A DNA stretch of 64,000 bases, taken from NCBI GenBank assembly GCA_963701965.1, contig OY969695.1, forward strand, positions 4,416,001 through 4,480,000, in the 5' to 3' direction. The notes under the pieces were generated by a model. The model made no database searches. It saw nothing but the letters and a program-made list of their open reading frames with translations, and was not told the DNA's origin. The position numbers and the translations under genes were made by a program. Position 1 is the first letter of the stretch. Each line of letters starts with the position of its first letter. Source of the DNA: an uncultured Gemmatimonadales bacterium (GTDB lineage Bacteria > Gemmatimonadota > Gemmatimonadetes > Gemmatimonadales > Gemmatimonadaceae). Shown here piece by piece: positions 10,957 through 24,171 of this stretch.

Positions 10957-13631
10957 CCGTCGATTTGCGAGCCCTCATCGGCAAGCTCAATCCCGCCACC
11001 CGCGGCGCCCTCGAGGCCTCGGCTGGCCTCTGCTTGTCCCGCACGCACTACGACGTGGAGCTCGAGCACTATCTGCTCAAACTCCTCGATCGGAGCGACG
11101 GCGACTTCGTCGCCATCGCCAAGCACTACGAGATCGACCGGTCCAAGCTGGCCAAAGACTTGGCCGCGGGACTCGACAAGCTGAAATCCGGCAACGCACG
11201 CACGCCCAGCCTGAGCCCCTCGCTGGTCAAGGCCTTCACGGACGGCTGGACGCTGGGGTCGATCGAGTACGGCGCCACCAAGGTGCGCACGGGGCACACG
11301 ATCCTCGCCATCGCATCCTCCGACGAGCTGTCGCGGATGGCCCGCGATATCAGCCGCGAGCTGACCAAGATCAAGGCCGCGGATCTCCAACACGAATTCG
11401 CGAATGTGGTGGCCACCTCTTCGGAGGATGGCGGTGCCGCCGCGGCCAGCGACGACGGGTCGCCCGCGGAGCGGACGCGCGGCGGGTCGGGGCAGTCGCC
11501 GAATCTCGACCAGTTCACGATCGACCTGACCGAGAAAGCCCGCGCCGGGAAGATCGATCCGGTGCTGGGCCGCGATACCGAGGTGCGCCAGGTCGTCGAT
11601 ATCCTCACGCGGCGCCGCCAGAACAATCCGATCCTCGTGGGTGAGGCGGGCGTCGGCAAGACCGCGGTCGTCGAGGGCTTCGCCGTGCGCATCGCCGCGG
11701 GGGATGTGCCGCCGCCGCTTCGCGGCGTGACGCTGCGGACGCTCGACTTGGCCTTGCTCCAGGCGGGCGCGGGGGTCAAGGGCGAGTTCGAGAATCGCCT
11801 CAAGGGCTTGATCGAGGAAGTCAAGAACAGCGAGTCGCCGATCATCCTGTTCATCGACGAAGCGCACACCATGATTGGCGCCGGCGGCCAGGCGGGACAG
11901 AACGACGCGGCCAACCTGCTCAAGCCCGCGCTGGCTCGCGGCGAGCTGCGCACGATCGGCGCCACGACGTGGTCGGAGTACAAGAAGTACTTCGAGAAGG
12001 ATCCGGCGCTCTCGCGCCGGTTCCAGGTCGTGAAGGTCGACGAGCCGACCGAGGATGTCTGCAAGCTCATGATGCGGGGCGTCGGTCCGGCTCTCGAAAA
12101 GCACCACAAGGTCCGCATTCTCGACGCCGGTCTGGACGCCGCCGTGCGCCTGTCGCACCGCTATCTGCCCGACCGGCAACTGCCCGACAAGGCGGTGAGC
12201 GTGCTGGACACGGCCTGCGCGCGTCTGGCGCTGGAACAGAGCGCGACGCCGGCGGCCGTCGAAGACCTCGGCCGCCAGCTCGACGACGTCGCCGTGCAAA
12301 CGCGCATTCTCGAGCGCGAAGGCGCCACGGGCGCCGATGTCGCCGAGCGGCTGGCGGCGCTCGCCTCCCGGCGTGGGCAGCTGGAAAAAGAACGCGAAGC
12401 CGCCACGGCGCGCTGGAAGCGCGAGGTCGAGCTGGTCAAACAGCTTCTCGTCATCCGGGAGCGATTGGAGGCGGGGGCGACCGGCGGCGCACCCGCGGGC
12501 GATGGTGATCGGAAAGAACTGGCCCGGCTCGACGCCGAGCTGGAGACGCTCCAGGGCGAGGCGCCGCTGGTACGGGTCTGCGTGGACGCCGGCATCGTGG
12601 GCGACGTCATCTCGGGATGGACCGGGATTCCGGTCGGGAAGATGCTGCGGGACGACCTCGCCGCCGTGCTGGCCTTGGAAGGTCAGTTGGGAAGTCGCGT
12701 GATCGGTCAGAATCACGCCCTGGAGGTCATGAGCAAACGCGTGCGTACGTCGAAGGCCGGGATCGAGGACCCCAACAAACCGGTCGGCGTGTTCATGCTC
12801 GTGGGCCCCAGTGGCGTCGGCAAGACCGAGACGGCCCTCGCGCTCTCCGACCTCCTGTACGGCGGAGAGCGGAACCTGATCACGATCAACATGTCGGAGT
12901 TCCAGGAGCCGCACACCGTGTCGACCCTCAAGGGGTCGCCTCCCGGATACGTCGGCTACGGGGAGGGCGGGGTGCTCACCGAGGCCGTCCGCCGGCGCCC
13001 CTATTCAGTCGTTTTGCTCGACGAGGTCGAAAAAGCGCACCCGGACGTGCTGGAGCTGTTCTTCCAGGTCTTCGACAAGGGCCAGATGGAGGATGGTGAG
13101 GGTCGAAACATAGACTTCAAGAACACCATCATCATCCTGACCACGAACGCCGGGACCGAGACGATCATGAAGCTCTGCGCTGATCCCGAGACCATGCCGT
13201 CCATGGACGGTTTGGCCAAGGCGCTCAAACCCGAGTTGGACAAGGTGTTCAAGCCGGCGTTCCTCGGGCGCATGGTGATCGTGCCGTATTTCCCCATCCG
13301 CGACGAGGCCCTGGCCCGCATCATCCGGCTCAAGCTCGGCAAGATCGAGCGCCGGCTGGCCGAAGTGCACCGGGTGACGCTCAAGTGGGGCGACGATCTG
13401 GTGGCCACGGTGGCGAGCCGCTGCACGGAGGTCGAAAGCGGGGCCCGCAACGTCGACAACATTCTGACCAACGGGCTGCTGCCGGAAGTCTCGCGCATCC
13501 TGTTGGAGTCGATGGTTGGTGGCGATCGTCTCACGGCGGTCCGCATCGGCATCGGAGACAATGGGGCGTTCACGTATCACCCCGAGCGCGCGCCGGATGA
13601 TGCCGGCCGCCTCGCCTCCCTTCCGGCCTGA
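10953..13631 (+). CDS. tssH: T6SS AAA+ ATPase TssH/ClpV
   Basis: Two AAA+ modules (GEAGVGKT, GPSGVGKT), ClpV N-terminus LRALIGKLN...SRTHYDVELEH, KGSPPGYVGYGEGG. Confidence 0.97.
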   Translation: MTVDLRALIGKLNPATRGALEASAGLCLSRTHYDVELEHYLLKLLDRSDGDFVAIAKHYEIDRSKLAKDLAAGLDKLKSGNARTPSLSPSLVKAFTDGWTLGSIEYGATKVRTGHTILAIASSDELSRMARDISRELTKIKAADLQHEFANVVATSSEDGGAAAASDDGSPAERTRGGSGQSPNLDQFTIDLTEKARAGKIDPVLGRDTEVRQVVDILTRRRQNNPILVGEAGVGKTAVVEGFAVRIAAGDVPPPLRGVTLRTLDLALLQAGAGVKGEFENRLKGLIEEVKNSESPIILFIDEAHTMIGAGGQAGQNDAANLLKPALARGELRTIGATTWSEYKKYFEKDPALSRRFQVVKVDEPTEDVCKLMMRGVGPALEKHHKVRILDAGLDAAVRLSHRYLPDRQLPDKAVSVLDTACARLALEQSATPAAVEDLGRQLDDVAVQTRILEREGATGADVAERLAALASRRGQLEKEREAATARWKREVELVKQLLVIRERLEAGATGGAPAGDGDRKELARLDAELETLQGEAPLVRVCVDAGIVGDVISGWTGIPVGKMLRDDLAAVLALEGQLGSRVIGQNHALEVMSKRVRTSKAGIEDPNKPVGVFMLVGPSGVGKTETALALSDLLYGGERNLITINMSEFQEPHTVSTLKGSPPGYVGYGEGGVLTEAVRRRPYSVVLLDEVEKAHPDVLELFFQVFDKGQMEDGEGRNIDFKNTIIILTTNAGTETIMKLCADPETMPSMDGLAKALKPELDKVFKPAFLGRMVIVPYFPIRDEALARIIRLKLGKIERRLAEVHRVTLKWGDDLVATVASRCTEVESGARNVDNILTNGLLPEVSRILLESMVGGDRLTAVRIGIGDNGAFTYHPERAPDDAGRLASLPA

Positions 13632-15664: not shown

Positions 15665-16258
15665 ATGACCGCGACCAAGACGGCGGCACCGCCGCCACCG
15701 ATGCCGGCCAATGTGGCCAGGGCCGCCCAGCTGGGAGACGACGCCGCGAAAGCGCTCCGTCCGGGTCTCGGTTCCCGCGAGTACGTCGCGGCGCTCCTCG
15801 CCGCGTCGCTTTTTCGCGATGCCGTGCGCTTCGTCGCGTTCGCGCTGCCGCGACGCGAAGCGGTGTGGTGGGCGTTGCTGTGCGCGCGCGAAGCCGCGGG
15901 CGACGCCCCGCCGCCCGCGGTGCGGGCCGCCCTCGACGCGACGGACACGTGGGTGCGCCATCCGGGCGACGAACAGCGTCGCGCGGCGATGGCCGCCGCC
16001 AAAACCGCGGAATTCTCGACATCGGCCGGATGCGCGGGCCTGGCCGCCTTTCTGAGCGGCGGAAGCCTGTCCGTGCCGGGACAACCGGATGTGCCGCCCG
16101 GGCCGTTCGAGTGCGCCAAGGCCGCGTTTGGGGCCGTGGCGGTGGCGGCGATCGGCACCGACGCCAAGACGGCGAACGACCGATATCGCCGCTATGTCGA
16201 GCAGGGTCTGCACATCGGCGAAGGCGCGGGTGCGTGGCACCCCGGTGGGAAGGTCTAG
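15665..16258 (+). CDS. DUF6931-like (Imm5-like) protein found between vgrG and PAAR
   Basis: DAVRFVAFALPRREAVWWA...WVRHPGDEQRRAA...AAFLSGGSL; position directly after vgrG. Confidence 0.8.
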   Translation: MTATKTAAPPPPMPANVARAAQLGDDAAKALRPGLGSREYVAALLAASLFRDAVRFVAFALPRREAVWWALLCAREAAGDAPPPAVRAALDATDTWVRHPGDEQRRAAMAAAKTAEFSTSAGCAGLAAFLSGGSLSVPGQPDVPPGPFECAKAAFGAVAVAAIGTDAKTANDRYRRYVEQGLHIGEGAGAWHPGGKV

Positions 16259-16548
16259 TGGGACTACCGGCCGCCCGCCTCACCGACATGCACGTGTGCG
16301 CCATGGTGACAGGCATCGTGCCGCACGTCGGCGGCCCCGTTGTTGGCCCGGGATGTCCGACGGTCTTGATCGGCGGGCTGCCCGCCGCGCGGGTCGGCGA
16401 CATGGCCGTGTGCGTCGGACCGCCGGACGTGATCGCGATGGGCGCCTTCACGGTGCTCATCGGCGGAATGCCCGCCGCCCAGATGGGCAGCCTCACGGCC
16501 CACGGCGGCACCATCGTGCTGGGATGCCCCACGGTGTTGGTCGGATGA
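16258..16548 (+). CDS. PAAR-repeat spike tip protein, 96 aa, no toxin extension
   Basis: GTG start; PAARLTDMHVC...PHVGGP...PAARVGD...PAAQMG...TAHGG. Confidence 0.95.
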   Translation: MGLPAARLTDMHVCAMVTGIVPHVGGPVVGPGCPTVLIGGLPAARVGDMAVCVGPPDVIAMGAFTVLIGGMPAAQMGSLTAHGGTIVLGCPTVLVG

Positions 16549-16615
16549 CTGTTGCCCGTTCTGCCGCAGTGATGCAATCGTAGGCTCGTCCATTCACCAT
16601 CGCCGAGGGATTCCC

Positions 16616-18574
16616 TTGCGCGTCTTGATCCTGAGATCGACCGGACTCCTGGTTGCCTCAGCACTGGTCGCCTGTTCCAGCGATTCCCATTCGACCAACC
16701 CTGGTCGGATGGCCATTACGCCGGACACGGCGGCACTGTTTCTCGGAGACTCGCTCCAGCTGACCGTGGCGAGCGCGCCGGGCTTCATTACATGGAGCTC
16801 CAGCGACAGCACGGTCGTCTCCGTCCTCCACGGCATGCTCACGGCGTTGAGCCGGGGCCACGCGACCATTTCCGCGCTCTCGGGGTCGTCGACCGCCTCG
16901 GCGTCGGTCGACGTCACGCTGCCGCCCACCATTGCGCTGGCCACGACCAGCGTCACGTTCGAGGCGCCGACCGGCGCCGCCGCGCCACCCGCGCAGAACG
17001 TCGGCGTCGCCAACGGCGGTGATGGACCGCTCACCAATCTTTCGGTGGGCCTCATTACCTACAGCCCTGGTGCCGCCGGCTGGCTGACCGCCACGCTGCC
17101 GTCGTCGGCCACCGCGCCCACCACCCTGACCGTGCAACCGACGACGGCCAAGCTGGCCGCGGGCACGTACTCGGCGACCGTCCCGGTCCTCTCGCCGGAA
17201 GCGACGAACTCGCCGCGGTCGCTCACGGTCACTTACGTCATCGATCCGCCGTCGATCATCGTCCTGTCGCGGAGCTCCGTCGCCATCGCCGCCCAGGCCA
17301 ACGGCGCGCTGCCATCGGTCCAGACGGTCAGCATCACGAATAACGGCGGCGGCTCGGTCCAAGGCCTGGCGCCAGGAACGATCACGTACTCGGCAGGTGC
17401 GACCGGGTGGCTCACCGCGACTCTGACGTCAACCGTCGCGCCGTCCACCCTGAGTCTGACGGCGACGACCACGGCGCTGGCGGTCGGCACCTACACCGCC
17501 ACCGTGCCGCTCACCTCGACGACGGCGGGTGTGAGCCCGCTGTCGCTGACCGTGACGTACAGCGTCACGTCCACCGCGGCACCGGCCGCGATCGCCCTCT
17601 CGTCGTCGACGGCGTCGTTCACCGCCAACACCGGCGGCGTGCTACCGGCGGCGCAACCGGTCTCCGTGTCCAACAGCGGCGGCGGCGCGTTGACGGGCCT
17701 GACGGCCAGTATCACCTACGGCGCCGGTGCGTCGGGCTGGCTCGGGGCCACGCTCAACAGCACGAGCGCGCCGGCCACATTGAGCGTGCGACCGTCGACG
17801 GTCCTCGCGGCCGGGACGTACACGGCCACTGTGAGCGTCGCATCGGCGACGGCGTCCAACACGCCGCAGAATGTCGGCGTCACCTACACGGTCACGACGG
17901 CGCCAATCATCACGGTGTCGGCCACCTCGGCGTCCTTCCTGTCGCAACAGGCGAACGTCGATCCGGCGAATCAGATCATCAATGTCTCGAACACGGGCGG
18001 GGGATCCCTGACCGGCCTTTCGACGGCGATCGTCTACAAGGGCGCCAACACGGGATGGCTCACCGCGACGGTGGCGGGCACCGCGCCGCTCAATCCGTCG
18101 ACGACGCCGCTCACGCTGCAAGTCACGACGGGAACGATCGTGCCCAGCACCGACACCGCGACGGTCACGCTCTCGTCGACGGTGTCTGGAGTGGCCCCGA
18201 AGGCCGTGACCGTGGTCTTCCTGCGACAGGCGACCCTGACGAACGACGTCATCCCGCAGGTGTTCGCGGGGGCCGGCGGCTGCACGTCGTGCCACTCCGG
18301 CAGCACGCCCGCGGATGGCCTCGACTTGTCGACGCCGAGCTCGGCGTTCGCCGGTCTCGTGGGCGCCACGCCGACGGCGACGGTGTCGCCGCCGATTCAG
18401 TTCCGTGTCGCGGCGGGTGACTCGACGAATAGTTGGCTCAATCTCGAGCTCAAAGGTCAAGCGGGTTCCGCCAACATGCCGTTCGGCTGCTCCACCGCCG
18501 GGACGCCGCCGTGCATTTCCTCCGCTCTGCAGAAACTCGTCGCGACGTGGATCCAACAAGGGGCGATTCAATGA
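16616..18574 (+). CDS. Lipoprotein: Ig-like (Big_2) domain, four BACON-like repeats, C-terminal c-type cytochrome domain
   Basis: Lipobox LVAC; WSSSDSTVVSV...GHATISA; four ~105-aa repeats with N.GGG/GWL.ATL/GTY.ATV; CTSCH...MP...WIQQGA. Confidence 0.8.
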   Translation: MRVLILRSTGLLVASALVACSSDSHSTNPGRMAITPDTAALFLGDSLQLTVASAPGFITWSSSDSTVVSVLHGMLTALSRGHATISALSGSSTASASVDVTLPPTIALATTSVTFEAPTGAAAPPAQNVGVANGGDGPLTNLSVGLITYSPGAAGWLTATLPSSATAPTTLTVQPTTAKLAAGTYSATVPVLSPEATNSPRSLTVTYVIDPPSIIVLSRSSVAIAAQANGALPSVQTVSITNNGGGSVQGLAPGTITYSAGATGWLTATLTSTVAPSTLSLTATTTALAVGTYTATVPLTSTTAGVSPLSLTVTYSVTSTAAPAAIALSSSTASFTANTGGVLPAAQPVSVSNSGGGALTGLTASITYGAGASGWLGATLNSTSAPATLSVRPSTVLAAGTYTATVSVASATASNTPQNVGVTYTVTTAPIITVSATSASFLSQQANVDPANQIINVSNTGGGSLTGLSTAIVYKGANTGWLTATVAGTAPLNPSTTPLTLQVTTGTIVPSTDTATVTLSSTVSGVAPKAVTVVFLRQATLTNDVIPQVFAGAGGCTSCHSGSTPADGLDLSTPSSAFAGLVGATPTATVSPPIQFRVAAGDSTNSWLNLELKGQAGSANMPFGCSTAGTPPCISSALQKLVATWIQQGAIQ

Positions 18575-19863
18575 TGCGTGCGTGGCCACGGTCCGCGATG
18601 GTCGCCGTCGTCCTCTTGGCGACTCGGTTGCCGGCGCAAGAGCCGAACATGAAGACGGATATCCGCAATCTGTTCCACTTCGGCACGTGCTCGGAGCTGA
18701 TCTGTCTCAGCTTGTCCGCGGGCCCACACGGGTCGCACTTCAACCCGGATGCCGATGCCAGCGGCCAGGAGTTGATCGACTTCCTGGATCAAGCGATCAC
18801 GACCAGCATCGGCGACGTGCCGATCGGCGGCACCAGCAGCGGCGCGGTCTTCTCGTTCGACGCGAACGGCGTCCCGATCGCCTCGTCGGGCTCGACCGGG
18901 CCGATATTCGGCGAACGCGCGCAGACGCTGGGGCGCGGGCACCTCGTCGTCGGTGTCAACGGCACCAGTGAGAATTTCGCGGCGATTCGCGGCGTGCCGC
19001 TGAGCGACATGTCCCTGGCCCTCACGCACCAGAACAACGATCCGCTCAGCGGCAACAAGCTGGGCGATCCGACGTTCGAATACGACTATATCCAGATCAA
19101 CACGTCGATGCGCCTGTCGCTGCAGACGTACGCGGCGTACATCACGTACGGCTTGGCGAACCACGTGGACTTGAGCGTGGCCGTGCCGCTCGTGCACCTG
19201 ACGTTCAACGGCACGAGTATCGCGAGGATCGTCACCAGCAACCCGGGCCCGGCCGATCACTACTTCAAGGGCACTGCGACGAACCCGCAGCTCGTGGATA
19301 CCACGCACAGCTCGGGCAACGTCACGGGCGTCGGCGACATGTCTATACGCCTCAAGGCCAATCTCTACCAGTCGGCCGGGGCCGGGTTCTCGCTGCTCGC
19401 CGACCTCCGTCTGCCGACGGGCGACCAGAACAACCTCCTGGGCACCGGGACGATCTCCTGGCGAGCCCTGGCGATCGCCTCTACGCGCTGGGGATTCGTT
19501 GAGCCCCACATCAATGTCGGATATGAGTATCAGAATGCGATTACCGAGACGGGAGCCGCGTTGACGACCGTCGGGCTCGATGCCCGGTTGGCGTCGCCGA
19601 TCACGTTCGCGGGCGAGGTCATCGGCCGCTGGGCCGTGGGTCCCAACGTGCCGTTGCCGGGGCCGGCGTCGTATATAGATGGTAGTGTCGTCCAGCGAAC
19701 GACGTTTCCGAATCAGCGCGACAACAATCTCGATGGGGCGGTGGGTCTCAAAATCGGCGTCGGGGCGGGGTTCACCTTGCTCGGCAATACGATCTTCCCG
19801 ATTCAGGACAACGGAGTCAAGTCGAACCTGATTTGGACTGTCGGACTCGAACGGAGCTTTTAA
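18571..19863 (+). CDS. Outer-membrane beta-barrel protein (SphA/MetA-pathway 'transporter'-like)
   Basis: Signal peptide, alternating amphipathic strands, GVGDMSIRLK, LPTGDQNNLLGTG, C-terminal Phe (LERSF); ATG overlaps the upstream TGA. Confidence 0.72.
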   Translation: MMRAWPRSAMVAVVLLATRLPAQEPNMKTDIRNLFHFGTCSELICLSLSAGPHGSHFNPDADASGQELIDFLDQAITTSIGDVPIGGTSSGAVFSFDANGVPIASSGSTGPIFGERAQTLGRGHLVVGVNGTSENFAAIRGVPLSDMSLALTHQNNDPLSGNKLGDPTFEYDYIQINTSMRLSLQTYAAYITYGLANHVDLSVAVPLVHLTFNGTSIARIVTSNPGPADHYFKGTATNPQLVDTTHSSGNVTGVGDMSIRLKANLYQSAGAGFSLLADLRLPTGDQNNLLGTGTISWRALAIASTRWGFVEPHINVGYEYQNAITETGAALTTVGLDARLASPITFAGEVIGRWAVGPNVPLPGPASYIDGSVVQRTTFPNQRDNNLDGAVGLKIGVGAGFTLLGNTIFPIQDNGVKSNLIWTVGLERSF

Positions 19864-19873
19864 TCTTCAGTCT

Positions 19874-22438
19874 GTGAACGCGACGCGCACTCTTCCCGCT
19901 ACCGCCTCCCTCCTCGACGCTGTCCGGGAGGCATCGGCATCGCGGTACGATGTGCTCGGGGAGCTGGGGCCGAGCGCGCGCAGTGTCATGGCCTACCTGG
20001 CGCAATTGCGCGCGGACGGGTCGCTCGGGATCCTGTTGCTGGAACGCGATCCGACGGCACCGGTCGGCGAGGATCGCTATGGGCTGACCGAGGCTCTGGA
20101 ACTGGACGACCGGGTGCCGACGCTCGGTCTCACCTGCGATGCCTGCCAGGCGCCGCTGGGCACGTGGGCCGCACGGTGCGGCGTATGTGGCGGCGACGTG
20201 GTGGGGACGCCCGACGATCCGACGGCGATCGCGACGCTGGCGGCGGGCCGCTACACGCTCCTGGGCTCGATGCGCCGCCCCGGGGGGGGCGCGGTCTATT
20301 TTGCCCGCGAACGCGAACGCGAACGCGAACGCGAACGCGAACGCGAACGCGACGCGCTCGTCGCGCTCCGCCTGATGCCGAGCGGCGAGACGGCGGCGCC
20401 CTACACGCTGGCGGTCACGCCGATCGATCCGGCGCGCGCGCCGCTCCTGCCGACACCCCCGGCGGCGCCGCGGACGCCGGACGTCACGGGGACCACCCGG
20501 CGCGTGCGCCCCACGGTGACCGCCCCGGCGACGAGCACGCGGGTGTGCGCCCAGTGCGGGGTCGAGTATCCGGCCGAGCAGCGATTCTGCCCGACGGATG
20601 GCTCGCCGCTCCGGGCGAAGACCGGCGGGTCGGGCCTCATCGGCGAGATCGTTGCCGACCGGTACCACGTCGTCCGGGCCCTCGGCGAAGGGGGGATGGG
20701 ACAGGTGTATCTCGCCGAACAGGTCAAGATGCGCCGCATGTGCGCCCTCAAGGTGATGCGGCCGGCGCTGGCCACCGATGCGGACGCGGTACGCCGCTTT
20801 GGCGCCGAGGCGGAAAACGCCAGCCGGATCGCGCATCCCAACGTCGCGGCGATCTACGATTTCGGTGAGACGACCGAGGGGCTCGTCTATCTGGCGATGG
20901 AGTTCGTCGACGGCGAGCCGCTGGCCGCGATCCTGGCGCGCGAGCGGACGCTGGCCCCGGGCCGCGCCGCGGCCCTGTCGCGCCAGGTCGCCGACGCATT
21001 GAGCGCCGCGCACGAGCTCGGGATCGTGCATCGCGATCTCAAGCCGGACAATGTCATGATCACGCGGGCCAAGGACGGCTCCGAGCGCGTGAAGGTGGTC
21101 GACTTTGGCATCGCCAAAGCGATGGCCGACGGACGCACGCAGATGACGCGGACCGGTTTCGTCCTGGGCACGCCGGCGTACATGAGTCCGGAGCAGATCT
21201 CCGGCGATGCGCTCGATGGCCGCACGGATCTCTATAGCCTGGGCTGCATGCTGTTCGAGATGCTGACCGGGCGCGCCGCGTTCAGTGGACCGTCGGGCGA
21301 GATCGTCCTGCACCGCCGGTTGACCGAGCCGGCCCCGCGCCCCCGGTCGATCAATCCGGACGTGCCGAAAGCGCTCGACCTGCTGGTGACCAAAGCGCTC
21401 GCCCGTCAGGCGAACGACCGCTATCAGTCCGCGGTCGAGATCAGCGCCGCGCTGGCCGAGTGCGACACCGGTGACGACGGCGCGGCGTCGATCGGAGCCC
21501 GCCTCTTTGGATGGGGCGCGCGGCCGTCGGCCGGTGGCACGCGCACGACGATCGTCGTCGGCCCCAAGGGCGCGACGACCGTGGTGCGCAGCAGCCCCAC
21601 GACGCGTGCGGTGTCCCCGAGTCGCGCCCGACCCTCCTCCCGGCGCCCCGCGCTCTGGGCCGGCGGCCTCGTCGTCCTCGTGGCCGCCGCGGCGGCCGTC
21701 GGCGTCCGGTATTTCAACCGCGCGCCGGCGCCGGTCGCGGCCGCGACACCGGCCCCGGCACCGACCGTGGCCGCCCCGTCGCCACCGACCGCTCCAGTCA
21801 CGGCCGCCGTACAGAGCGACACGTTGACCACGGCCGCCCAGACGGCGGGGACTACCGCGGAAAAGCCGGTCAAGTCGACGACCACGCTCAAGGCGCCGCC
21901 GGGTCCAAAACCCAAGCCCGCCGTCGCCACGCCGGCCGTGTCGGCGGTCCCGCCCGCGTCGTCGACGGCGACCGCTGTGGCGCCACCGCCGGTACCGGTG
22001 CCGACGCCGACTCCGGTCGCCGTGACGCCGGCACCGGCTCCCGCGACGCCCCCTCCCGCCGCGACGCCGGCGCCCGCGGCGGCTCCCGCCACGGACGTCG
22101 CGGCCGACGCGCAGCGGGCGAACGACGTGCTATCGGGCTACGTCAGCGCGCTCAACGCCAAGGACGTCGCCGGTATGAAGCAGCGCTATCCGACGATGCC
22201 GGGCGCCCTGGAGAACGGTCTCCGGCAGTTGATCGCGAACGCCACGGATTTCTCGGCGGCGCTGACCGACTACCCGTCCGCGGCCGTGCACGGGGATGTG
22301 GCCGACGCCGACTTCGGCTACCTGATGAATTTCTATCTCCCGTCCCAGGGTGCCGGACACACGAAGCTGCGCTACCACGCGGTCATGGCCCGGGACGCGT
22401 CCGGCTGGCACATCAAGTCCCTCACCGCGCTGCACTAG
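19874..22438 (+). CDS. Hanks-type Ser/Thr kinase with N-terminal zinc ribbons, a TM helix, a Pro/Thr/Ala linker and a C-terminal NTF2-like domain
   Basis: GEGGMGQVY, ALKVM, HRDLKPDN, DFG, GTPAYMSPEQ; CxxC pairs; TM segment LWAGGLVVLVAAAAAVGV. Confidence 0.9.
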   Translation: MNATRTLPATASLLDAVREASASRYDVLGELGPSARSVMAYLAQLRADGSLGILLLERDPTAPVGEDRYGLTEALELDDRVPTLGLTCDACQAPLGTWAARCGVCGGDVVGTPDDPTAIATLAAGRYTLLGSMRRPGGGAVYFARERERERERERERERDALVALRLMPSGETAAPYTLAVTPIDPARAPLLPTPPAAPRTPDVTGTTRRVRPTVTAPATSTRVCAQCGVEYPAEQRFCPTDGSPLRAKTGGSGLIGEIVADRYHVVRALGEGGMGQVYLAEQVKMRRMCALKVMRPALATDADAVRRFGAEAENASRIAHPNVAAIYDFGETTEGLVYLAMEFVDGEPLAAILARERTLAPGRAAALSRQVADALSAAHELGIVHRDLKPDNVMITRAKDGSERVKVVDFGIAKAMADGRTQMTRTGFVLGTPAYMSPEQISGDALDGRTDLYSLGCMLFEMLTGRAAFSGPSGEIVLHRRLTEPAPRPRSINPDVPKALDLLVTKALARQANDRYQSAVEISAALAECDTGDDGAASIGARLFGWGARPSAGGTRTTIVVGPKGATTVVRSSPTTRAVSPSRARPSSRRPALWAGGLVVLVAAAAAVGVRYFNRAPAPVAAATPAPAPTVAAPSPPTAPVTAAVQSDTLTTAAQTAGTTAEKPVKSTTTLKAPPGPKPKPAVATPAVSAVPPASSTATAVAPPPVPVPTPTPVAVTPAPAPATPPPAATPAPAAAPATDVAADAQRANDVLSGYVSALNAKDVAGMKQRYPTMPGALENGLRQLIANATDFSAALTDYPSAAVHGDVADADFGYLMNFYLPSQGAGHTKLRYHAVMARDASGWHIKSLTALH
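20306..20347 (+). repeat. (CGCGAA)7 simple sequence repeat encoding poly-(Arg-Glu)
   Basis: Seven perfect hexamer units followed by CGCGAC, read directly from the sequence. Confidence 0.97.
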
Positions 22439-24171
22439 CGCACGGTCACCCGGACCGTCGCCTCGCGTCCCGCCGCGCTGGCGCGGACATTGGCCGTGCC
22501 GGCGCCCCGGGCCGATAGCTCCCCGGTCGCCGGATCGATGGCGGCAATGACCGGGTTGTCCACGCTCCACGCCAGTCCGATGTTCGCCACCGGGCGGTGG
22601 TTCACGTCGTAACCCGCCCCGGCCAACTTGTACCGTCCGCCGACGCGCAGCGTCGGCGGTGGCTCGATCTGGATCCATCGCACGCCGTGCGCCGCCGCCG
22701 GGGCCACCGGGGGCGCGACGACGGGAACCAGCGCTGGCGGGGCCTCGGGCGGCGCGGGCCGTGACTGCCACCACTCGAACCCGCCCACGGCGCCCGCGCC
22801 GAGAACGGCGACCACCGCGACCACGGCGAGCCAGGGGCTCCGCTTCCCCGACGGCACCGGGGCGGCCACCGGCGGCGGCACGACGGGCACCGGCACCGGC
22901 GCCGGCACGACGGCGGCGGGCGGCGTGGTGAAGCCCGGAGGCCGGGTAACCGTCAGCGAGATCGCCGCCCGCGCCTCGCCGGCGGCCGCGCGCACGATGA
23001 CCGATCCCGGCGCGATCGCCCGCGCCAAACCTTGGCTCTCGACGCGCACAATGTCGGGCGCATCGGACGTCCAGGTCACGCTGGGCGCCGGAATCTCCGC
23101 ACCGCGCGCGCTCCACGCGGTGAGCTTGAGCGGCACCGTGTCCCCGACGCCGATCTCGCCAGGCGCGGTAATGGCGAGCCGGCTGGCCGCCACGGCCGTC
23201 GTGCGCGCGCCGCCGCGGGGGATGGGACTGGGCACGCCCTTCACGATGGCGGTGTCGAGTCCCGCGGTCGCCCACTGCGCCAGTTGGACGCGCGCCGGGT
23301 CGTCGTCACTGAGCTCCCGCGCCCCCGCCGCCGCTAGCGCCGCCGACATCGTGGGCCACCGCTCGGCGGCCGTCTTCGCCAACATGCGCCGCACCGCGGC
23401 GTCGAGGTCATCGGGGCAGTCCGGGCGCCGCTCGACGATCGGCGCCGGCGGCCGGTCCGTGTGCGCCTGCATGATCGCCAGCGCCGACCCGGTGAACGGC
23501 ACCGATCCCGTGAGCATCTCGTAGGCGACGACGCCGAGCGCGTATTGGTCCGAGGACCAGGTGACCTCGACGCCCCGGCACTGCTCGGGACTCATGTAGA
23601 TCGGCGTGCCCACGGCCGCGCCAGTCTGCGTGTGGGTCTGCGACTCGGCGACCTTGGCGATGCCGAAGTCCGTCACCATGGCCTCGCCGGTCGCGTCGAT
23701 CATGATGTTCGCCGGCTTGATGTCCCGGTGGATCACCTGCTGCCGGTGCGCGTACGTGAGGGCGCTGCCCACCTGGCAGAGGATGTGTCGCGCGATCGCC
23801 AGCGGCATGGTCCCCTGCGCCGCCAGGATCTCGGCCAACGGGCGGCCCACGACGAACTTCATGACGAAACAGTGCAGGTCGCCGATCTCCCGCACCGCAT
23901 GGATCGTGATGATGTTCGGATGACTCAAGTTGGCGACGGTGACCGCTTCCTGTCGAAACCGCTGCACCATGCTGGCGTCGGGCAGGAGCCCGGGCGACAT
24001 GACCTTGATCGCCACCCGCCGGTCGAGGGCCGGTTCATAGCCCAGGAAGACGGCGGCCATGCCGCCGCGTCCCAACTCGCGTTCGATGATGTAATCGCCC
24101 GCGAGCGCGTCGTTCAGCCGGTCCGCGATCGTCGACCAGCTCGAATCATTTCCGGGGATCGAGGCCGTCAC
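22435..24171 (-). CDS. Hanks-type Ser/Thr kinase with two Ig-like (Big_2) domains flanking a TM helix
   Basis: [46 protein letters not shown] and [12 protein letters not shown]g motifs. Confidence 0.92.

Follow-up and report, generated by a model that had tools for sequence, protein, structure and literature searches.

In TonB-dependent cell-surface signalling (FecA–FecR–FecI), an outer-membrane barrel closed by a plug passes its signal to the periplasmic domain of a protein that spans the inner membrane once. How bacteria with two membranes perceive the exterior through receptor-like Ser/Thr kinases is known in few cases. In type VI secretion systems (T6SS), the envelope proteins TssW of Acidovorax and RtkS of Serratia bind the periplasmic domain of the T6SS kinase, and these inputs are swapped between lineages, according to the available text of the two reports (PMC12607579, PMC6082577). 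The locus described here occupies positions 16616..24171 of a 64,000-nucleotide stretch (the window) from an uncultured Gemmatimonadales bacterium (assembly GCA_963701965.1, contig OY969695.1, positions 4,416,001 to 4,480,000 of the forward strand). At the end of a T6SS cluster, it encodes a heme-tipped lipoprotein, an outer-membrane barrel, and two membrane Ser/Thr kinases, KinA and KinB. The locus is best read as a general cassette for trans-envelope signalling from barrel to kinase, one that has repeatedly come to lie at T6SS loci. With a probability of about 0.5, the barrel and KinA, which is tipped by an NTF2-like domain, would constitute an outer-membrane receptor coupled directly to an inner-membrane kinase.

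The constant unit of the cassette is the barrel together with a C-terminal NTF2-like domain, mostly carried by a Hanks kinase. Among 61 close genomes, an NTF2 domain lies within 6 kb of 27 of the 28 full-length barrels, the exception being on a 2.1-kb contig; weak partial barrel matches (10 of 38 rows, E > 1e-20) were left out of the count, and the 61-genome tallies include the unpublished G012, on which no claim rests. In the 39 of 79 GTDB loci with flanks of at least 5 kb, a kinase is found in 38 and an NTF2 domain likewise in 38 (the 40 short-flanked loci were left out), and the NTF2 domain is present in 67 of all 79; the NTF2 profile was built from barrel neighbours, such that its scores there are circular and its positions are not. 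As a background, about 10% of the genes of the source genome have any kinase within 7 kb. Distant metagenome loci were kept out of profile building. A metagenome scan that started from distant barrels, with Calditrichota and Zixibacteria represented in their clusters, therefore serves as an independent test. The NTF2 domain is present in all 23 of these loci that have flanks of at least 3.5 kb (56 of 79 were left out as short-flanked) and in 61 of 79 overall. It is C-terminal in 62 of 62 metagenome matches, with an intervening transmembrane helix in 28 of 32 kinase fusions.

The cytoplasmic part that precedes the NTF2 domain varies and can be a single kinase, a double kinase with TPR, or a caspase-like domain. 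The last of these was observed in L301 (4370-5806), where a gene standing directly before the barrel joins a caspase-like Peptidase_C14 domain, in place of a kinase, to the NTF2-like domain. Genes of similar length occur in L303, L304, and L310, the domain scan having covered L301. In the source genome, one of 36 kinases carries an NTF2 domain, and that kinase adjoins the sole barrel. GTDB holds about 446 barrel loci. The 79 best GTDB relatives of the barrel belong to Gemmatimonadota groups, with the exception of one unclassified bacterium, and the barrel is present in 122 of 351 Gemmatimonadota genomes. One barrel family and one periplasmic domain thus make up a very tightly linked receptor candidate in about a third of the sampled genomes of the phylum and beyond.

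The two proteins also covary. For 105 triples, retained after dropping those without a full barrel, NTF2 domain, or kinase domain, the distance correlation is highest between barrel and NTF2 domain (rho 0.62), lower between barrel and kinase (0.45), and lowest between the NTF2 domain and its own kinase (0.34). This order is kept in 200 of 200 resamples thinned to about 59 lineages, and the corresponding values for Gemmatimonadota alone are 0.59, 0.32, and 0.15. The covariation suggests a partnership without proving it, as related sequences are not independent.

The barrel (430 residues, 18571..19863, + strand) is a core member of the cassette with a FapF/COG4313/autotransporter-like fold and a match to PF13557 (E 1e-6, 29 bits against a cut-off of 22). 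The best structural match of its model is FapF (Foldseek E 4e-12). Upon realignment, FapF (Z 24.2, root-mean-square deviation (rmsd) 3.7, 240 residues aligned), the NalP translocator (Z 23.4, rmsd 3.0, 240 aligned, starting at model residue 64), and Pput2725 (4rl8; Z 23.0, rmsd 2.5, 235 aligned) are nearly tied. Because the NalP alignment begins at residue 64, the helix of residues 58-81 (18742..18813, + strand) is placed in the pore, which it is predicted to thread in an autotransporter-like manner. The model thus predicts a 12-stranded barrel plugged by a helix, with a small His-rich cap outside, and shows the N-terminal occlusion that is characteristic of COG4313/FapF-like barrels. With the helix in the pore, the N-terminal cap, which harbors the conserved His53 and His56 just ahead of the helix, would face outside. 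H53, H56, H153, E170, D172, and H230 are near-invariant across 105 barrels and may form a metal or ligand site. The barrel shares with FapF, COG4313 proteins (Pput2725, SphA), and autotransporter translocators the 12 strands, the occluded pore (Z 23-24), and the weak relation to PF13557. However, it is just 11-16% identical to them, its cap and pore helix are longer, and its constant neighbour is a kinase. A search of the barrel profile against PDB sequences gave no real match. No fap partners are found among the window neighbours (lipoprotein, kinases), although no search was aimed at the Fap families.

These structural likenesses lend themselves to another explanation, in which the barrel would act as a channel that takes up a hydrophobic or amphipathic molecule, or would export in the manner of FapF, and the NTF2 pocket of the kinase senses the delivered ligand without contacting the barrel. 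NTF2 folds commonly bind hydrophobic or amphipathic ligands, and tight gene linkage would be accounted for equally well. FapF and Pput2725 are the best structural matches, and members of COG4313 are implicated in the uptake of hydrophobic molecules in the available text of PMC4493636. However, the N-terminal part of the barrel spans about 100 residues versus about 14 in Pput2725, and the barrel has a pore helix and near-invariant His/Glu/Asp residues. Uptake is also disfavored by the lack of conserved catabolic genes near the barrel, and export of the lipoprotein is not the barrel's general job, since many barrel loci lack any large lipoprotein. An uptake or export role is therefore unlikely, though it deserves serious weight.

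KinA (854 residues, 19874..22438, + strand), the second core member, consists of a zinc-ribbon N-terminus, a Hanks kinase domain with its catalytic motifs, a single transmembrane helix (593-611), a Pro/Ala/Thr stalk of about 120 residues, and the NTF2-like domain. The latter (22082..22435, + strand) is predicted to be periplasmic and is the sole strong match in the genome. It has no Pfam match. Its model is of high confidence (predicted local distance difference test (pLDDT) 95) and displays the three helices on a curved sheet that define the NTF2-like superfamily, with a TM-score of 0.78 to 3soy; its Atlas neighbours are Cds6_C/SnoaL. The initial annotation of a membrane Ser/Thr kinase with an outer NTF2-like domain is thus borne out. 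Within the N-terminal part of KinA, a short run at 20300-20340 of the window encodes RERERERERERERD. KinB (578 residues, 22435..24171, − strand) converges on kinA, as had been proposed for a second Ig-bearing kinase. It harbors a Hanks kinase domain with catalytic motifs, an immunoglobulin-like (Ig) domain of the Big_2 family, a transmembrane helix (447-465), and a weaker Ig-like match after this helix. In the kinase tree, KinA falls within a 42-tip clade (support 0.97) holding 13 tssM-side kinases. KinB lies in a 25-tip clade that consists mostly of barrel neighbours and holds no other kinase of the source genome, a make-up to be read in light of the enrichment of the tree for barrel loci.

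In the proposed receptor, an outside cue, either a ligand or contact, would act at the barrel cap and move the plug helix. The periplasmic end of the barrel would contact the NTF2-like domain on the Pro/Ala/Thr stalk of KinA, upon which the kinases could cluster and autophosphorylate, with threonine phosphorylation to follow. Both the cytochrome lipoprotein and KinB would be optional additions, the former as a co-receptor or a source of redox input, the latter as a second kinase. In the source genus, the pair at the end of the T6SS cluster may help control T6SS assembly, and a candidate substrate on the T6SS side would be the Thr-repeat membrane protein encoded between the two tssK genes.

Several observations weigh against a barrel-to-kinase receptor. 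The two characterised folds that the barrel resembles, FapF and COG4313, are described as transporters and not receptors in the available text of PMC5557850 and PMC4493636. The barrel model is only of moderate quality (pLDDT 77, with residues 86-112 below 50), leaving the plug geometry uncertain. Distance correlations from related sequences could arise from common gene history even if the proteins never touch. The association also runs in one direction, in that 17 of 44 NTF2 matches are not near a barrel (the flanks of the 14 inspected are barrel-free). One family (L228-L230) carries the barrel but no kinase at the three loci examined. With regard to the T6SS, the studied barrel is found within six genes of the core in none of 20 further T6SS loci, and the 9 FHA and 2 SpoIIE-family matches of the genome are all more than 200 kb from the T6SS locus.

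The lipoprotein (652 residues, 16616..18574, + strand) has an LVAC lipobox (Cys20), a Big_2 domain at residues 32-98 (Pfam), four Ig-like repeats of about 108 residues (16916..18235, + strand; 35-52% identical to each other, no Pfam family), and a C-terminal class I-like cytochrome c domain (18218..18571, + strand; CxxCH at 18281-18295). It had been annotated as carrying Ig/BACON repeats and ending in CxxCH. The Ig and CxxCH parts of this description hold; for BACON, there is no Pfam match with either the whole protein (E ≤ 0.01) or two repeats (E ≤ 0.1), and an NCBIfam scan yields just a weak choice-of-anchor D match below the cut-off. A conserved Met-Pro at 18476 is the likely sixth heme ligand. 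This distal Met-Pro is kept in at least 90% of 36 heme domains; these were selected by CxxCH and Trp, so the conservation of those two features is not independent. The heme-domain profile matches the heme domains of FoxE (E 6e-12) and hydrazine synthase alpha (E 4e-9). The source genome also encodes cytochrome c assembly proteins (three PF01578 matches). On the basis of the distal Met-Pro, these profile matches, and the assembly genes, the CxxCH domain is most likely a true monoheme cytochrome c. It shares CxxCH, the distal Met-Pro, and a WIxxGA end with FoxE, hydrazine synthase alpha, and PSCyt1-type domains. However, it is here a lone domain on an Ig-repeat lipoprotein stalk, and its PSCyt1 score is below the cut-off.

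The heme-tipped Ig lipoprotein, whose length ranges from about 500 to more than 2,600 residues across loci, is an optional part of the cassette present in about half of the loci. A cytochrome domain is found near 41 of 79 GTDB barrels; for the metagenome loci the counts are 16 of 50 and, among the top distant ones, 0 of 29. The proposed redox sensing thus rests on an optional component. The same distribution bears on a porin–cytochrome unit in which barrel and lipoprotein would transfer electrons. Such a role, to which the FoxE and hydrazine synthase alpha matches and the assembly genes lend some credence, is highly improbable given a single heme at the tip of a 500-2,600-residue stalk, the lack of a multiheme or quinol-oxidase partner, a barrel that is narrow and plugged in the model, and the absence of the cytochrome from about half of the loci.

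The initial annotation had cast the locus as a trans-envelope sensing module of the T6SS, a non-homologous equivalent of TagQRST–PpkA that senses redox or contact. The sensing module survives as the best reading of the barrel and the NTF2-tipped kinase; its dedication to the T6SS does not. Among 351 genomes of the phylum, 122 have the barrel, 37 have TssC, and 24 have both, such that 98 barrel genomes lack TssC and 13 TssC genomes lack the barrel. Similarly, a full-length barrel occurs in 26 of the 61 close genomes, 16 of which are without TssC. In the 24 genomes with both, the two genes lie within 25 kb in three (source genome included), far apart on one contig in four, and on different contigs in 17; the barrel flanks from 12 of these 17 hold no T6SS gene. 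The expected synteny with T6SS loci is therefore not borne out, as the genes usually occur away from them. A T6SS-specific module was rejected on this distribution, which also departs from the definition of T6SS-accessory (Tag) genes as occurring mainly in T6SS loci. A dedicated T6SS sensor is refuted as a family-wide role and very unlikely overall. The locus also has no Fha, PppA-type, or TagR-family gene, and the heme lipoprotein is optional. The search for fha and pppA included the region left of the window and found no Fha or PP2C/PppA-type gene at the locus. The three TagR-type (FGE-sulfatase) matches of the genome all lie outside the T6SS locus. TagF gave no match in the source genome, and control genomes gave none either.

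T6SS adjacency nevertheless recurs, which speaks in favor of the dedicated sensor. The gene order of the studied locus is repeated in G001, G003, and G005. In G029, the lipoprotein–kinA–barrel block follows immediately on tssM, from whose end the reading frame of the lipoprotein extends. The barrel further has T6SS genes beside it in G006, G156, L066, L103, L109, L129, and the distant L306 (27% identical). T6SS genes lie within 8 kb of the barrel in 8 of 79 GTDB loci, three of which are near-copies of the studied locus; the remaining 5 among 76 compare with fewer than 0.1 expected by chance, by our own rough estimate. In a tree of 125 barrels, the 11 T6SS-adjacent tips fall in about five places of one branch, interspersed with non-T6SS tips. 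The T6SS link is thus a recurring minority state of the cassette. Because the cassette is found at T6SS edges in several separate places of the tree and after tssM in G029, a local T6SS role is kept in play. Control of the T6SS by the cassette in the source genus is a reasonable possibility that falls somewhat short of even odds, under the relay and the uptake reading alike.

The T6SS arm of the window looks complete by Pfam, with tssB, tssC, hcp, tagJ/ImpE, tssA, tssE, tssF, tssG, clpV, vgrG, DUF6931, and PAAR; tssK of the window was recognised from its translation, and the cluster continues to the left of the window with tssK2, tssL, and tssM. The sole vgrG copy of the genome (13640..15661, + strand; Pfam, tblastn) lacks a C-terminal effector extension. 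It is followed by the DUF6931 gene (15665..16258, + strand; PF22011, E 4e-47) and by a 96-residue PAAR protein (16258..16548, + strand; PF05488) without a toxin extension. The four genes lie beyond this trio as initially annotated, with the lipoprotein on the same strand and a 4-bp overlap of its stop with the barrel start. Neither a terminator nor a sigma70 promoter was called in the 67-bp gap between PAAR and lipoprotein (16549..16615, + strand), in agreement with the initial annotation, although the intrinsic-terminator scan is weak here (3 sites versus 4.8 expected from shuffled sequence). The gap is long enough to hold a promoter, and co-transcription of the cassette with the T6SS is possible.

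The absence of toxins from the end of the operon, which had been part of the initial description, holds for the studied locus and not as a general rule. As a rule it was rejected, since effector-like genes precede the barrel in L066 and G156, and the source genome encodes four Rhs-core proteins at other sites, not linked to vgrG/PAAR. Between vgrG and DUF6931 of L053 (G036) lies a gene (12275-13555) with a match to PF03497, a toxin family of the adenylate-cyclase type, so that the T6SS type does carry effectors in some genomes. A second, orphan hcp (G000:C1:4757353; 81% identical) adjoins neither a vgrG nor an evident effector.

The T6SS of the source genome belongs to a type with two tssK genes and a TssL that has no OmpA-type match. 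TssJ (PF12790) is found in just 1 of 35 T6SS-bearing genomes, at a locus of different layout. Other systems make up for an absent TssJ with TsmK or TagV, as stated in the available text of PMC13584744. A structural role would thus be conceivable in which barrel and lipoprotein stand in for the absent TssJ and tether TssM to the outer membrane, in line with the block following tssM in G029. In most TssJ-less loci, however, such a barrel is missing from the vicinity, and better candidates exist among the 20 further T6SS loci, making this role quite improbable. One candidate for a TssJ stand-in is a small lipoprotein without a Pfam match, encoded directly after tssM in 9 of the 20 loci (e.g., L208:1626-2162) and absent from the source genome. 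Another is a CsgG-like gene, which flanks 11 of the 20. In the source locus, a second envelope module left of tssM (L001:4536-12647) comprises a CsgG-like protein, another barrel, and two Ig/RCC1-repeat lipoproteins. A second barrel flanks 7 of the 20 loci, such that both genes are commoner there than the studied barrel. The second barrel has no detectable kinship to the studied one (probability 0.2%).

An intact kinase is encoded within six genes of the core in 12 of the 20 loci, and two more have kinase-like matches; in the source genome, KinA and KinB are the sole intact kinases at the T6SS locus. A kinase slot at the edge of this TssJ-less T6SS type thus looks conserved, with the barrel cassette filling it in the source genome. 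Occupancy of the slot is not proof of T6SS control. Further left of the window, L001:1245-2798 encodes a KinA-like N-terminus with a zinc ribbon and no kinase domain, followed by a Pro-rich linker and Sel1 repeats at the end. Between the two tssK genes (L001:18100-19571), also left of the window, lies a gene for a Pro-rich protein with a C-terminal transmembrane helix and G[ED]FTxxF-type repeats. The source-genome copy is split over two reading frames, possibly by sequence error. Such a protein sits between the tssK genes in 17 of 17 loci that have two, and this Thr-repeat membrane protein is a plausible kinase substrate. A methyltransferase gene (MTS-like; weak DUF7059/DUF7782 matches) at 974-2446 of the window, between tssK and tssB, recurs in many T6SS loci of the same type, including the distant L306.

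No description of the barrel/NTF2-kinase pair turned up in the literature covered, from which most subscription journals were absent, and the cassette appears undescribed so far. The available text of the T6SS accessory-factor review PMC13584744 mentions no Gemmatimonad, cytochrome, or beta-barrel. The finding reveals a T6SS type that has neither TssJ nor an in-locus Fha and in which envelope modules are interchangeable at the edges.

In the TagQRST–PpkA–Fha1 system of Pseudomonas aeruginosa, a T6SS-locus Hanks kinase of the inner membrane likewise has an outer-membrane component upstream of it, as outlined in the available text of PMC13713981 and PMC13584744. The studied locus has the membrane Hanks kinases that mark the T6SS threonine phosphorylation pathway (KinA, KinB). 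However, it lacks a TagR-family, Fha, or PppA-type gene, its outer part is an integral barrel, the outer domain of KinA is NTF2-like, and the barrel–kinase pair is found mostly in genomes without a T6SS. The cassette fails membership of this pathway, though it may work in a similar manner. Acidovorax TssW–PpkA–Fha and Serratia RtkS–PpkA likewise pair an envelope protein with the T6SS kinase's periplasmic domain, in the available text of PMC12607579 and PMC6082577; in contrast to the studied cassette, both are T6SS-internal and Fha-dependent. In comparison with FecA–FecR–FecI, the barrel has 12 strands instead of 22, and a Hanks kinase or a caspase-like domain takes the place of the anti-sigma factor as output. 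It may tentatively be proposed that the pore helix carries the outside signal straight to the NTF2 domain of a kinase or caspase-like protease. The cassette would then be a kinase-output counterpart of TonB-dependent signalling, spread across Gemmatimonadota and lineages farther away and enlisted repeatedly to set off a T6SS that has neither TssJ nor Fha.

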